DNA of 64,000 nt, taken from the sequence record NC_054925.1. One strand, given 5' to 3'. A program made the translations under genes and the position numbers. Source of the stretch: Escherichia phage vB_EcoM_NBG2. Below, piece after piece: positions 1,458-33,015 of this stretch; position 1 is the first letter of the stretch, and every line of letters begins with the position of its first letter. A model generated the notes under the pieces. That model had not been told where the DNA came from, did not search any database, and saw only the letters and a list, made by a program, of their open reading frames with translations.

Positions 1458-2058
1458 GGTGTCTTTTCCATCCTAATTTAGCTGCTTTTGAAACTAGTTC
1501 TTTAATTTTTCCTTTTGTCCATTCAGGACCAGGAGGTTCATGACATAACATTTGCTTAACTCCGTTATTATACCATTTTTTACCTTTATTATGTGATGAA
1601 GCTTTAAATTTATTTGACCTTCCTTTTACATAACCTTCTGGAATATAAGGCAAAAAGGCAGATTTTCCTGTTAATGGATCATGTGAATGTATATTTCCTT
1701 TACAATTATGAGAACCATATAATGGATGATTTTGTCCTTTATTATCTCTTCCAAATGAACCTTTTGGAGCAGCATATGACATATTAAAGAATAATGGATT
1801 TTTAACTGCATCATGCAATCGTTGATAATATAACTCGCATTTAATAGCTTCTTCACGCGTATCAAATTTAGCTAAAATGCATGAATCAAATAAGTGAGGA
1901 TTATCTGAAAGCTCTTTATTATAAATTTTCTTATACTTTTTAGATAAAACTGAACCATGATATCCAGCTAAATGCCTATCTAAAGACGTAGATCCAATAT
2001 AAAAAGGAGGAAGTTTATCTCCACTATATATTGTTAAATAAGTTATATATTTTTTCAT
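1435..2058 (-). CDS. putative GIY-YIG family endonuclease-like protein (free-standing, Seg-like)
   Basis: 207 aa; N-terminal YLTIYSGDK..FYIGSTS then R, E and N at GIY-YIG-like spacing; basic Gly/His/Lys-rich C-terminal half; overlaps gene 47 start by 23 nt. Confidence 0.55.
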   Translation of the reverse strand: MKKYITYLTIYSGDKLPPFYIGSTSLDRHLAGYHGSVLSKKYKKIYNKELSDNPHLFDSCILAKFDTREEAIKCELYYQRLHDAVKNPLFFNMSYAAPKGSFGRDNKGQNHPLYGSHNCKGNIHSHDPLTGKSAFLPYIPEGYVKGRSNKFKASSHNKGKKWYNNGVKQMLCHEPPGPEWTKGKIKELVSKAAKLGWKRHHENTKLG

Positions 2059-2234
2059 ATATCAAGAACCGTCATTGAAATGCAAAATAAAATTATTGAA
2101 ATAAACCCATCTGGTGTGCTAAAGAACCCAATCCAACATGCTCTAGTGAATAGATAAAATGCAAGAAAAAGTATCACATATCCAAGAAATATCATTATAT
2201 CAAACTCCGCATAAAGCTAAAGGGCCGAAGCCCT

Positions 2235-3437
2235 TTATTTTGTAATAATGTCAAACTGTTCTTTAAAACAGAAGCTTGAATCTTGGTGCTGATACAAAAA
2301 TTCATATGCTTTTTCTCGCTCACGGTCATAAAGAGCTCGGTCAGATGACAGTTCTTTAATACGTTCAAACGTTGATTCCATATCATTTTCATCAAACCAA
2401 ATGATACCGCTATCATGCGAGGTCAAAGGAGTATTATCAACACGGAATTTTAAATTTTCGCCAGTAGATTTCCAAAATACCGGAATTGTTCCACATGCAC
2501 CAAGCTCGAGATGAGTATATTCTAAAGAACGTTGTAGATATTTTTTGTCCAACTTACTCAGCTGATAACCAAATCCGGATTTACTCATGCGTTCAAGCAT
2601 TTCGCTATTTACATAACGATCAAGAATTTGCGTTGGCAAATTAGGAGCAATTTTAATTTGGTCTACTTGATGAAGACGATAATACTCGTATGGAATTCCT
2701 TTTTCTTTAATAGGAATGAACGCTGGAGAACGTTCCAGACCTTCCATAATAGTACTTAGTCCTGCAGGTTTAAGATGTTTTTCATGAAAATCAAACATCT
2801 GATAAAAACCTTTCCATGTAGTCGTACGACCAATCCAACGGTTAACATTCATGTTAATTTCAGAAACATCTTTCCAGTAGGTTGACCGAACCTTCGCAAT
2901 ATCCATAGGAGGCTGAAAGTTATATACTGTCGGTGCTTCTTCAATATCATCAAACAGAGAAACAGTTTCTGGATACCATTCTTTCATCAGAACTTTATTA
3001 AAATCACCATTATCAGAATGACTAAAAATAACATCAGCTCGACGAACAGTTTCTTCTAATCCCAAATTTCGACGCAAAGAAAGAGAAGAATGGTCATGTT
3101 GATAAACTACAACACGAACAGAAGGTTTAATGTTATCAATAATTTTTTTATAGTTATTAATAGTGTCTTCTTCAACCGAAGTAGCAGGAACTGAATTGAT
3201 AATTAGAATATCACAATCATTTACCAGCTTAAGTGTTTTATCATATTCTTTTGCCAATAAAACCGGAATTGAAAATGATTTATAATCATGCGCGCAATTA
3301 CGAGTAAATGATTTATCTTTAGCATAAACCAAAGTTACTTCATGACCATTCTTAATAAACCAATCACGTTGCTCAAGAGAAAATTTAGTTACACCACAAC
3401 CTTCAAGACCTCGAGCCATAAAAATACATACTTTCAT
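2235..3437 (-). CDS. a-gt: DNA alpha-glucosyltransferase
   Basis: 400 aa; near-identical over its length to T4 alpha-glucosyltransferase as recalled. Confidence 0.93.
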   Translation of the reverse strand: MKVCIFMARGLEGCGVTKFSLEQRDWFIKNGHEVTLVYAKDKSFTRNCAHDYKSFSIPVLLAKEYDKTLKLVNDCDILIINSVPATSVEEDTINNYKKIIDNIKPSVRVVVYQHDHSSLSLRRNLGLEETVRRADVIFSHSDNGDFNKVLMKEWYPETVSLFDDIEEAPTVYNFQPPMDIAKVRSTYWKDVSEINMNVNRWIGRTTTWKGFYQMFDFHEKHLKPAGLSTIMEGLERSPAFIPIKEKGIPYEYYRLHQVDQIKIAPNLPTQILDRYVNSEMLERMSKSGFGYQLSKLDKKYLQRSLEYTHLELGACGTIPVFWKSTGENLKFRVDNTPLTSHDSGIIWFDENDMESTFERIKELSSDRALYDREREKAYEFLYQHQDSSFCFKEQFDIITK

Positions 3438-29284: not shown

Positions 29285-29322
29285 GTGAATATACTATCAC
29301 AATTCTAGGAGAAAGTAAACAA
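29285..29322 (-). promoter_or_regulatory. early promoter upstream of internal protein gene
   Basis: Minus strand GTTTAC (29320..29315) and TGATAGTATAT. Confidence 0.5.
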
Positions 29323-29324
29323 CT

Positions 29325-30293
<969 letters not shown>

Positions 30294-30297
<4 letters not shown>

Positions 30298-30782
30298 TTT
30301 AATTTCCTGCATTCAGTGATAAAGTTATTTAAATTTTGAGTATATTTCTTTTCATCAAAAATCTTTTGTTGTCTGCGTAAACGCCATGGCATTTCAATGA
30401 ACATACGCCATATTCCTGATAATACTGCTGCTGTAAAAATATTAACAAGTATAGTTAAAAGAACCCAATCTCCTATTCTGTCCATTGGATTTTTTATAAA
30501 AAAGTAAAATACGAACGATGATATAGGAAGACTAATGATATACCACAGAAGAACCTTCTTATCTGTGAACCAATCAGCATTCGTTAACTTAGCGCGACCG
30601 TTTTGAATACATACGAACTTATCATCTGTTACAGTAAATGGCTTAGCTGCTTGATATCCCATTCTAAACTCCCTAATTAATCGTTTCTTTGTATCTTCAG
30701 AACAACCATTCCAGTCAACTCTATCAACTGGAATGCCATCATCCCCATCATCTAAATCATACCAGCGAGTTTTTAAAATCAT
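30294..30782 (-). CDS. membrane protein (162 aa), tandem family member 1
   Basis: Soluble N-domain then two TM helices; C-terminal motif FITECRKLK shared with next two genes. Confidence 0.5.
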
Positions 30783-31141
30783 TTAATTTTCCTACAATCA
30801 CTCACAAACTCTTTCATTGACTCATTTTCAATATAAGACATGTAGCTATTATATTCCTTTAATTGTATTTTGTAATCCTTTTTTCTTTGCCAATTTATTT
30901 TAAAATTATCATAATGAAAATATAAAATGATACCAAAGAATGAAAACAATGAAATAATTTTAGTATAACAAAGCTCATTCCAAACTTCTGTTATATTTAC
31001 TGTGCCGTCGATGTTTAAAATAAGACAGTCAATTAACAATCCAAAAAGACTACCCGCAAGAGCTGCAGCCAACGCCACAGCAAAAATTAAAAATGACTCA
31101 GAAAACGAATATTTGACTTTATTTAGTTTTGGCTTTTGCAT
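30779..31141 (-). CDS. membrane protein (120 aa), tandem family member 2
   Basis: Two TM helices; C-terminal FVSDCRKIK. Confidence 0.5.
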   Translation of the reverse strand: MQKPKLNKVKYSFSESFLIFAVALAAALAGSLFGLLIDCLILNIDGTVNITEVWNELCYTKIISLFSFFGIILYFHYDNFKINWQRKKDYKIQLKEYNSYMSYIENESMKEFVSDCRKIK

Positions 31142-31536
31142 CGTGATTCCTTAACAAATTTCATAATTTCATTAAATTCATACTCAGCAAGTTTAAGCTG
31201 GTGTTCCTTTTTAATCTTTTTACACTGAGCTTTCCAATCGTGTACACGTTTACGATAATGTCTTCCTTGATACCAGTATCCTACCCAATTTACGGGTACT
31301 AATAAAAGTGGAACTACCAATGGAAGAATTAGCATTAACACAAGTATTTCGCCAGAATCAATATCAGTCATAACATCTAAAACACCTCCAATAATCAATA
31401 GAATTACAAATGATATAAGTATAACAGGACCTATTAATACATCAGTAGAAATTATCTGGTGCTTTGATTCATACTTCAAAGGTTTACTTGGAAGGTATAG
31501 TGATGGTTTTGACATATTCTCTACATTCCTTAACAA
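31123..31536 (-). CDS. membrane protein (137 aa), tandem family member 3
   Basis: Two TM helices; C-terminal FVKESRCKSQN. Confidence 0.5.
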   Translation of the reverse strand: MLRNVENMSKPSLYLPSKPLKYESKHQIISTDVLIGPVILISFVILLIIGGVLDVMTDIDSGEILVLMLILPLVVPLLLVPVNWVGYWYQGRHYRKRVHDWKAQCKKIKKEHQLKLAEYEFNEIMKFVKESRCKSQN

Positions 31537-32092
31537 ATTTTTCTAATAATAAATCGCTTTCAAAATTGGGATTTTCCACGAATTTATCAAAAAGATCATC
31601 AACAATAGTTAAGATATTCTTTTTACTAAGAATACGCTTATTTTCATGCTTCGTTTCAGAATCAACTATAAGAGTAAAGAAATATTTCTTGCCCTGAAAT
31701 TTTACAGTAGTATCAATATAGAATAAATTTGACTTTTGTAAATTACGTTTAAACCATGCGTCACTTAAACTATAAACACCGAGATAATCATAATCGTCGT
31801 TTAAATAACATACTGTCCATTCAGGAGAAATGAAATCAGTAAATTCAACATCAAAATCACGCGTCAATGAATGAATTGATTCAATACTGTTAATAAGTAT
31901 TCCAGGACGTATTAAAGACTTTTTACCTCTGGAAAATCTTCCAGAAAGACTTTCATCAGTTTCATATGAAGAACCCCAATAATAATTACGTCCTTCTGCC
32001 ATACGTTTAAGAGCATTTAATAATTGGTCTGGAACATCAACCTGCCTTTGGAACTCTTCAAACATTGAATTGAAATCACTTTGCATTCTCAT
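31484..32092 (-). CDS. hypothetical protein (202 aa)
   Basis: ORF track; C-terminal EKFVKECREYVK echoes the motif of the three downstream membrane genes. Confidence 0.5.
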   Translation of the reverse strand: MRMQSDFNSMFEEFQRQVDVPDQLLNALKRMAEGRNYYWGSSYETDESLSGRFSRGKKSLIRPGILINSIESIHSLTRDFDVEFTDFISPEWTVCYLNDDYDYLGVYSLSDAWFKRNLQKSNLFYIDTTVKFQGKKYFFTLIVDSETKHENKRILSKKNILTIVDDLFDKFVENPNFESDLLLEKFVKECREYVKTITIPSK

Positions 32093-32133
32093 TCCTATTT
32101 ACTCCAAGTAATAGGGGCCGAAGCCCCTTATCA

Positions 32134-32727
32134 TTATTTCAGAGAATTAATGTATTCCTGAACATCGGCAGAGGTAGTTTCAACCCCAGAAATATTACCG
32201 TTAAAGGTTTCAACTCGAGCAAGAGTATCTTCAATATCAACCTTAGTCAGTGCTGCAATTTCAACTACATCATCAGCAGTACTAATTCCAAGGGCATTTG
32301 CTGCACGAGTTTCACGGATATATTCCAATTTAACCGCAAGTTCTTGGCGTGCATCATCCAATTCAACTACTTTCTTAGCGATTTCAATTCGCATTTCAGC
32401 ATAACCATCAGCTTTAGTAGTCAACTGCTCAGCTGTTCGACGATATAGTAAACCGAGTTTAGCATGCATTGTTACATCTTGACCTTCGGAAAGAAGCTTG
32501 CGAATTTCACGCTCTTTTGATTCAGCCTGCTTATTCTTTTCGACAATAAGTTCACGAATACGTTTTTCTTCATTAATAGATTTAACAGAAGCAGTTTTTA
32601 GATCTTTAATCTTATCAAGTAGTTTTGCTGCTGCAGCAGTATACTGTTCTTCAACAGATAGATTTTTAGCCATAGCAGAACCAAGTTTAGTGCGAATAAA
32701 CTCAACAATTTTCTTCAGTGTGTTCAT
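32134..32727 (-). CDS. coiled-coil protein (197 aa), possibly PspA/IM30-like
   Basis: Continuous charged heptad-rich helices with N-terminal amphipathic segment; assignment to PspA family is tentative. Confidence 0.45.
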
Positions 32728-32764
32728 AGTATTTCCTTAGGTTAATTAAGATTTAAAATCCATG

Positions 32765-32797
32765 AGAGTATTATACTCCGGATAGTTTGTAAACTAT
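32765..32797 (-). promoter_or_regulatory. early promoter
   Basis: Minus strand GTTTAC (32794..32789) and GAGTATAAT. Confidence 0.5.
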
Positions 32798-33015
32798 GTT
32801 AACATCGCCTTTTGCTGCTTTATAACCTTCAGCCCAAGATACAACCGAGTTTTTATCTGAAGATTCAAATTCTGGCATTGGGCTTTCGCCAATGTTCACG
32901 CAGTATGTTTCTTCATTTTCGTCGAACCAAATAATTAAAGTAGTCATTTATTTCTCCGTTTCTGTATTTGTTTTGATAAGTCTATAATAACACCATCCTT
33001 GGTGTTTGTACACAA

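Follow-up and report, generated by a model that had tools for sequence, protein, structure and literature searches.

The 64,000 nt stretch of Escherichia phage vB_EcoM_NBG2 (NC_054925.1) that was analysed here, referred to as the window, comes from a Tequatrovirus (T4-like phage). It carries a row of four small genes, e.5, e.4, e.3 and e.2, whose products all end in the same type of C-terminal tail, F-[IV]-x-x-[CS]-R. Gene identities at the locus were taken from the T4 and RB18 annotations. Hundreds of T4-like coliphages match the region 29300-32800 at 92-98% identity, and the window genes e.2-e.5 are orthologous to those of T4 (about 85-99% identity, with the same order and the same overlaps). 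They are already known as hypothetical genes of T4, where e.2-e.4 are annotated as 'conserved hypothetical, predicted membrane protein'. To our knowledge, about half of the T4 genes, those of this block included, are still without a function 30 years after sequencing.

All genes of the locus are encoded on the minus strand. Gene e.5 (31484-32092) codes for a soluble protein of 202 aa (phrog_2607), e.4 (31123-31515) for a protein of 130 aa (phrog_2604, E=3.6e-69; PF26873, which is precomputed on all e.4 homologues), e.3 (30779-31141) for 120 aa (phrog_2330, E=3e-58, and a weak full-length match to phrog_2604) and e.2 (30294-30782) for 162 aa (phrog_2203, 'membrane protein'; PF26896). The block e.2-e.4 sits between e.5 and the genes nudE (29857-30297) and lysozyme e (29325-29819), in agreement with an initial annotation of the window which had placed it next to lysozyme and nudE. 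NudE, a Nudix hydrolase of 146 aa (PF00293, E=3e-13), belongs to the context and is not a member of the family described below.

The initial annotation had listed three tandem membrane-protein genes of 162, 120 and 137 aa with a shared C-terminal motif and overlapping starts. Hydropathy and motif counts compared with shuffled sequences confirm the arrangement, and the sizes of 162 and 120 aa stand, but the open reading frame (ORF) of 137 aa is a TTG-to-stop version of e.4 which reaches 31536. The true start of e.4 is the ATG at 31515, as given by the T4/RB18 annotation and by the conserved N-terminus MSKPSLYLPSKP. The overlaps amount to 32 nt for e.5/e.4, where the final 10 codons of e.5 overlap the start of e.4 in a different frame, to 19 nt for e.4/e.3, and to 4 nt (ATGA) for both e.3/e.2 and e.2/nudE, so that e.2 is translationally abutted to nudE.

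The C-terminal tail of e.2-e.5

In e.5, the tail motif is encoded at 31520-31537 as TTT GTT AAG GAA TGT AGA (F-V-K-E-C-R), and the Shine-Dalgarno sequence (SD) of e.4, AAGGAA at 31526-31531, is contained in it (e.4 ATG at 31515). The e.4 motif at 31141-31158 reads TTT GTT AAG GAA TCA CGA (F-V-K-E-S-R); here, codons 3-4 form the AAGGAA of e.3 (31147-31152; ATG at 31141). In e.3, the motif TTT GTG AGT GAT TGT AGG (F-V-S-D-C-R, 30791-30808) leads into the SD of e.2, AGGAAA, which starts with the Arg codon (30788-30793; ATG at 30782). The same holds for e.2, where TTT ATC ACT GAA TGC AGG (F-I-T-E-C-R, 30306-30323) provides the start of the AGGAAA of nudE, again from the Arg codon (30303-30308; ATG at 30297). 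The position of the SD thus differs by gene pair, with K-E codons (AAGGAA) in e.5/e.4 and R-K codons (AGGAAA) in e.3/e.2. An exact stretch of 16 nt, AAATTTGTTAAGGAAT, is common to the e.5/e.4 and e.4/e.3 junctions. The embedded SD does account for some of the nucleotide similarity among the tails of the window.

When the 64-kb window is translated in all six frames, the pattern F[IV].[DE][CS]R turns up at five places, four of which are the ends of e.5, e.4, e.3 and e.2. In 30 shuffles the same pattern was found 0.37 times on average and three times at most. A looser pattern, searched near ORF ends, did not reveal any further real gene in the window or in T4 at 1-50 kb and 150-169 kb.

Protein anatomy and predicted topology

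Kyte-Doolittle analysis shows two hydrophobic segments each in e.2, e.3 and e.4, and none in e.5. The e.3 protein starts with the basic N-terminus MQKPKLNK, followed by a first transmembrane helix (TM1, about aa 16-43), an acidic loop, a second helix (TM2, about aa 59-76) and a basic tail of 44 aa which ends in KEFVSDCRKIK. The e.4 protein is built alike, with TM1 at about aa 25-46, an acidic loop, TM2 at about aa 57-76 and a basic tail of 54 aa ending in MKFVKESRCKSQN. In e.2, an N-terminal part of about 75 aa is soluble and is followed by helices at about aa 77-97 and 105-128 and by a basic tail. The soluble e.5 ends in the same tail, LLEKFVKECREYVK, a similar end having been noted for the upstream gene of 202 aa, and the tail sequences listed in the initial annotation, including EKFVKECREYVK, were found as given.

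Net charges in e.3/e.4 are +3 for the N-terminus, -3/-4 for the inter-helix loop and +3/+8 for the tail. Because of this charge distribution, both termini are predicted to be cytoplasmic (N-in/C-in) and the acidic loop to be periplasmic, and the basic tail of the hairpin proteins is predicted to be cytoplasmic.

Within Tequatrovirus, the tails are 95-97% conserved, compared to 64-85% for TM1 and loop of e.3/e.4. The latter region shows indels and, in e.4, also an allelic cassette. In the e.4 alleles P0132-P0135, a wholly different TM1-loop segment (VEIIPVIMFTISTIIGFIILEHNKNASRE) is flanked by an identical N-terminus and an identical tail, which looks like a cassette that has been swapped by recombination.

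As an additional observation on e.4, an internal WKAQCKKIK (about residues 94-102; 31204-31236) resembles the C-termini of e.3 and e.2 (CRKIK, CRKLK) and is followed by 28 residues with an e.5-like end. This would fit an ancestral end to which an e.5-type tail has been added, the match being short and lysine-rich.

Conservation of the tail at the protein level

The corresponding blocks of other genera were retrieved via the conserved neighbour gene e.6 (32134-32727, minus strand), which is always located immediately upstream of e.5. The genera included those of PhAPEC2 (Mosigvirus), SP18 (Gaprivervirus), Pectobacterium phage PM2 (L021) and Klebsiella phage KPV15 (L024). Across at least seven Tevenvirinae lineages, the tail is encoded at the 3' end of the e.5-like gene and of all two-helix genes behind it, and it is also present on soluble proteins of about 100 aa from other genera.

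A set of 48 distinct tails was compared. Position 1 is F in 46 cases and W in two (TTT 37, TTC 9, TGG 2). Position 2 is I (32), V (11) or L (5), while positions 3-4 are variable (KE, TE, SD, ME, AE, DQ, KH, KY, ES, DD). Position 5 is C in 38 tails (TGT 21, TGC 17) and otherwise V, M, I, S or A. Position 6 is R in 45 tails and K in three, with all six Arg codons in use (AGA 16, AGG 11, CGT 11, CGC 4, CGA 2, CGG 1). The distance from the Arg codon to the next ATG ranges from -1 to 332 nt. Among 36 tails, the SD starts at codon 3 in 10 cases and at codon 6 in 11, and is found wholly downstream of the motif in the remaining 15. When eight genus-level sequences of e.5 are compared, only five residues are invariant (M1, N98, F186, C190, R191), three of which belong to the tail. 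The best-conserved columns of the hairpin superfamily are the F (93%) and the R (86%).

Because F, I/V, C and R are kept while synonymous codons vary, these comparisons show the tail as maintained by selection on the protein, and as the most conserved part of every family. The downstream SD is lodged in tolerant positions of the motif, either in codons 3-4 (AAG GAR) or in the Arg codon (AGG/AGA followed by A). An element that acts at the RNA level is excluded by the codon variation.

Two other explanations of the tail have to be weighed against these data. According to the first, the tail is a mere by-product of the overlapping downstream ribosome-binding site and start codon, and the proteins are otherwise unrelated. 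Such an origin is suggested by the AAGGAA/AGGAAA within the motif in all four window genes, with the next ATG at -1 to 8 nt past the Arg codon, and by the occurrence of K-E at positions 3-4, encoded as AAG GAR, in just those tails that have the ATG nearby. However, the codons for F, I/V and C are never part of an SD and the SD-bearing positions are the variable ones. Arg is encoded by any of its six codons and Cys by either of its two, and tails whose SD is elsewhere still have the motif, some tails being 38-332 nt away from the next gene. Moreover, the homology of e.3 and e.4 extends over the entire proteins (see below). The similarity, which the initial annotation had considered as potentially due to ribosome-binding sites alone, is therefore not explained by them, and we regard this origin as highly improbable.

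According to the second, the tail, as a nascent peptide, influences elongation or termination in cis and tunes the translation of the overlapping downstream gene. This is compatible with the conservation at the amino-acid level and with a motif that is always 0-15 residues from the stop codon and usually about 30 nt or less from the next start, on unrelated proteins. The distances to stop and next start vary, however, and some tails lack a nearby downstream gene (332 nt in PhAPEC2). In addition, a ribosome paused on C-R would presumably cover SD and ATG within its own footprint. We hardly give any credence to this type of regulation.

Relationships among e.2, e.3, e.4 and e.5

When only Tequatrovirus sequences were compared by BLASTP and hhalign, nothing significant was found among the proteins beyond the 13-aa tail and an N-terminal MxKPxL, the alignments being shallow (effective number of sequences about 1.2-1.4). 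With profiles that extend across genera, the e.3 profile matches members of the e.4 family (E=7e-5 to 9e-4, at Z=260) and the e.4-like profile matches e.3 members (E=8e-5). Overall, the reciprocal matches range from about 1e-4 to 1e-9, and none of the reversed decoys scores. Phage PM2 has two tandem copies which are related at E=1e-5 and bridge the e.3 and e.4 families. By hhalign, the e.3 family aligns with e.4-like proteins from other genera over 104 columns, at a probability of 95.7% (E=9e-9). Judged by these profile comparisons, e.3 and e.4 are shown to be diverged tandem paralogues.

The position of e.2 is less clear. By hhalign, it matches the superfamily with 84% (E=8e-6), but only in TM2 and tail. 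The e.2 protein of the window scores 7.4 bits against the family, a value equalled by 166 of 2000 segment-preserving shuffles (P about 0.08), and one e.2 variant reaches 17.4 bits. Paralogy of e.2 with the hairpin family is thus plausible; e.2 combines an unrelated soluble N-terminal domain with a hairpin and tail of similar build. The tandemly amplified membrane-protein family proposed in the initial annotation can hence be upheld for e.3/e.4, where reciprocal profiles, hhalign and a copy number of 1-3 agree, while for e.2 the similarity is confined to TM2 and tail.

The e.5 protein is homologous to the SP18-type e.5 (90.6%). The small soluble proteins of about 100 aa have only the tail in common with e.5 and with the hairpin proteins. 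Because soluble e.5 and these small proteins carry the tail alone, the tail is a portable module.

In an exhaustive HMMER search with a combined e.3+e.4 profile, nine clusters were found at E<=1e-3 among 1.84 billion representatives, which shows a hairpin family that is, as far as sequence searches reach, restricted to T4-like (Tevenvirinae) phages.

Copy number and recombination at gene junctions

The copy number of hairpin genes was compared across relatives and found to vary from one to three between genera. A single hairpin gene follows e.5 in L012/L014, L018-L020 and L022, two are present in PhAPEC2 and SP18, and three in Tequatrovirus, PM2 and KPV15. The number of phage records with a tblastn match is 642 for e.5, 663 for e.4, 604 for e.3 and 532 for e.2. 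At the Tequatrovirus level, e.2 has about 446 matches, compared to about 500 for the other genes.

Some of the losses can be traced to the junctions. In VEc74 and L005, which lack e.2, e.3 and nudE are joined by an exact chimera of the junctions e.3/e.2 and e.2/nudE. It matches the e.3/e.2 junction of the window up to GATTG, continues as the e.2/nudE junction from TGCAGGAAATTAAAATG, and the tail of e.3 becomes CRKLK. The crossover in the e.2-less relatives has occurred inside the repeat 30791-30808 and its twin 30306-30323. In L012 and L014, which lack e.4, the crossover is found between two initiation regions (TAAAG[G/A]GGTTC..AATG). UFV05 and UFV11 carry an in-frame e.4::e.2 fusion which was made within TM1, and e.3 has been lost.

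As the tail and the initiation region are repeated at successive junctions, in-register unequal recombination between these repeats removes or adds whole genes and thereby sets the copy number of 1-3.

This leads to a further explanation of the tail, namely that it is a junction cassette which has been spread by recombination and is kept for its translational-coupling signals and for cassette exchange, the peptide being functionless. The same tail is indeed found on unrelated N-terminal modules, crossovers in the junction repeats remove genes precisely, and the junctions e.5/e.4 and e.4/e.3 have the exact 16-nt repeat in common. There is also a precedent, as promoter/stem-loop (PeSL) cassettes, which are conserved boundary elements, mediate modular shuffling in hyperplastic regions of T4-type phages (Arbiol et al. 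2010, PMC2839356; Comeau et al. 2014, PMC4122927). Between genera, however, synonymous sites drift but F, I/V, C and R are retained in the protein, which is the opposite of what a DNA or RNA element predicts, and the tail is the most conserved part of e.5. We consider this explanation, with a peptide that has no function of its own, quite unlikely.

The junctions resemble PeSL cassettes in that short conserved boundary sequences in plastic regions of T4-like phages serve as crossover points for the gain or loss of single genes between close relatives. They differ in that the repeat is a coding one within an operon, made up of the last 6-9 codons of a gene together with SD and ATG of its successor, and not a unit of promoter and terminator. 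It recombines in frame, yielding chimeric tails. No promoter plus stem-loop unit was found at the e.5/e.4, e.4/e.3, e.3/e.2 and e.2/nudE junctions, where the genes overlap and no non-coding sequence is left. The sole hairpin at gene junctions of the block is G+C-rich and located between e.6 and e.5, at 32113-32128. The annotation of L13089 places promoters ahead of e.8, e.7 and e.6 and a stem-loop after e.6, and none ahead of e.5.

Neither the paralogy of e.3 and e.4, nor the tail shared by e.5 and soluble proteins, nor the recombination at the junctions was found in the annotations and the literature searched, and the databases keep the families separate. Thus, the e.3/e.4 paralogy, a portable protein-level tail which is common with soluble proteins, and a role of this tail as an in-frame recombination site appear to be new.

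Possible functions of the hairpin proteins and their tail

In T4, the RNAs of e.2-e.5 have been classed as early, and the proteins were detected as early (e.4, e.5), middle (e.2) and late (e.3) (PMC9697503, supplementary files 4 and 6).

Taking the data together, the best overall explanation combines a paralogous hairpin family, a portable protein-level tail and recombination at the junctions, with the tail serving as a docking peptide; for this combination as a whole, we consider the case to be evenly balanced. The docking function of the tail taken by itself is a best guess which we offer tentatively. The tail would be a short helical docking peptide which, at an early stage of infection, may bring soluble e.5 and the membrane hairpins to one shared partner on the inner side of the cytoplasmic membrane. 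Candidate partners are the proteins themselves (binding one another), the conserved neighbour e.6, or a factor of the host. Specificity in a non-essential host-interaction function could reside in the hairpin and loop, which evolve fast.

A more far-reaching version, which we regard as speculative and rather doubtful, is that of a phage-encoded portable docking tag. It would recruit unrelated early proteins (e.5, the soluble proteins of about 100 aa, e.2/e.3/e.4) to a single hub, either e.6 or a protein of the host, at the inner membrane, and the DNA of the tag would double as an in-register recombination site by which modules are added, dropped or swapped.

Portable C-terminal interaction peptides occur on otherwise unrelated proteins, examples being the tails by which T4 gp43, gp55 and gp33 bind the clamp, and that of the single-stranded DNA-binding protein (SSB). 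As in these, a few invariant C-terminal residues are found on unrelated bodies, but the sequence matches none of those motifs and the analogy is one of logic only. A resemblance to FtsZ C-terminal or clamp-binding motifs was considered and rejected, as it requires gaps.

Several points count against the docking explanation. Searches of e.2-e.6 against Pfam, NCBIfam and PDB sequences gave only sub-threshold noise. The AlphaFold2 models of e.2 and e.5 are of low confidence. For e.2 (alignment of 25 sequences; predicted local distance difference test score, pLDDT, 49), helices are modelled at 72-95 and 103-161, so that TM2 continues into the tail as a single helix, and e.5, modelled from its single sequence, has a pLDDT of 40. 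A strong membrane-targeting amphipathic helix in the tail was considered and rejected, since the hydrophobic moment (0.40-0.49) is only marginal when compared with shuffles (P 0.04-0.22). The homology of e.2 to the hairpin family is marginal. Because e.2 is missing from about 11% of the Tequatrovirus records and is truncated in the T4 reference, at least this copy must be dispensable. The 48 tails had been collected by a regular expression; family alignments built without it show the same conserved columns. Finally, the motif is looser in tails of the e.4 lineage, where S, I, V, M or A takes the place of the Cys.

The same replacements led us to reject a catalytic or metal-binding thiol at the motif Cys. 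Because they include aliphatic residues, the Cys seems to behave as a hydrophobic position of a helix rather than as a reactive thiol.

An alternative function for e.2-e.4 is that of membrane effectors in superinfection exclusion or anti-defence, like T4 Imm and Sp, with a variable hairpin that tracks a target in the host or in a rival phage. The proteins are small, early, predicted to be located in the inner membrane and look non-essential. TM1 and loop are hypervariable (indels, and the allelic cassettes in P0132-P0135) beside invariant ends, and the copy number varies between host groups. With Imm they have in common the small size, the early expression, two hydrophobic helices and the accessory nature, and the hairpin profile weakly matches T4 Imm (13 bits, shuffle P about 0.006). 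However, this match is confined to the hydrophobic hairpin, the inter-helix loop is basic in Imm and acidic here, which is the opposite charge pattern, and Imm does not have the F-x-x-x-C-R tail. Homology to Imm was rejected, as the 13-bit match (E=0.0017 among 467 ORFs) reflects hairpin composition only. We consider this function unlikely; it concerns the role of the proteins and is compatible with the anatomy on which the docking explanation builds.

The initial annotation had also named lysis timing. The e.2-e.4 proteins could be holins, antiholins or other lysis-timing proteins, as they resemble class II holins and pinholins (phage 21 S21-68) in having two transmembrane helices with a predicted N-in/C-in charge pattern, a basic C-terminal tail and a size of 120-160 aa, and as they are encoded two genes from the endolysin gene e in Tequatrovirus. 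Holins, however, are late, while the T4 RNAs and the e.4 and e.5 proteins are early. The linkage to e is not conserved in other genera, the genes not being adjacent to it in Mosigvirus and Gaprivervirus, and deletions or truncations of e.2 are frequent. For lysis, T4 relies on holin t, which is annotated far away, so that T4 already has a holin. Because of the early expression, the non-conserved linkage and the existing holin, we take a role in lysis to be very improbable.

Irrespective of function, at least four families that had been listed as hypothetical become linked by one C-terminal motif at the protein level, and two of them are paralogues. The repeats that code for the motif are breakpoints of natural gene gain and loss, and represent a coding counterpart, within an operon, to the promoter/terminator cassettes which shuffle genes of T4-like phages. 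They also show how an SD can be accommodated in tolerant positions of a selected peptide. The finding alone does not reveal a new mechanism or answer a long-standing question, but provides a concrete handle in the form of a six-residue target for mutagenesis, candidate partners (e.5, e.6 and the hairpin proteins) and natural deletion variants.

Neighbouring genes and further observations

With 197 aa, helical by sequence, the e.6 protein is by far the most conserved of the block; between genera, its identity is 60-98%, and the DNA is about 79% identical to that of Mosigvirus. Some records label it 'host specificity protein', without any visible basis. In the original T4 nomenclature (GenBank L13089), e.5, e.4, e.3 and e.2 were called msp4, msp5, msp6 and msp7, in a block from msp4 to msp8.

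In many deposited genomes and bacterial assemblies, e.3/e.4 are called 'sulfurtransferase' (once 'DNA primase'). We rejected this name, as searches against Pfam and NCBIfam did not give a rhodanese or sulfurtransferase match even at E<=1, and the label appears to be a propagated misannotation.

In the T4 reference (NC_000866), e.2 is a truncated ORF of 102 aa (L002 2153-2461, corresponding to 30294-30782 of the window). Compared to the window, one nucleotide is missing from an A-run (A6 to A5), and one is inserted 74 nt later. Truncated forms of e.2 with 102 or 122 aa occur in other phages too (P0188-P0193). The truncation in T4 could be real decay or an old sequencing artefact. Inside the region which codes for the N-terminal domain of e.2 (GIPVDRVDWNG), a terminator scan flagged an inverted repeat of 13 pairs, CATTCCAGTTGATAGAGTTGACTGGAATG, at 30707-30735 on the minus strand.

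A second tandem family, likewise with a common C-terminal motif at its gene junctions but absent from the window, is found just downstream of the hairpin genes in other phages. It consists of three to six small soluble proteins (65-105 aa) of the RB69 ORF136c-139c type and is located at 2233-3027 (minus strand) in PhAPEC2 (L003), at 1711-2736 (minus strand) in SP18 (L004), and also in L009-L023. Each member ends in G-x-W-[VI]-S-S-S-x-x-C, which is directly followed by TAAGGAA and the next ATG.

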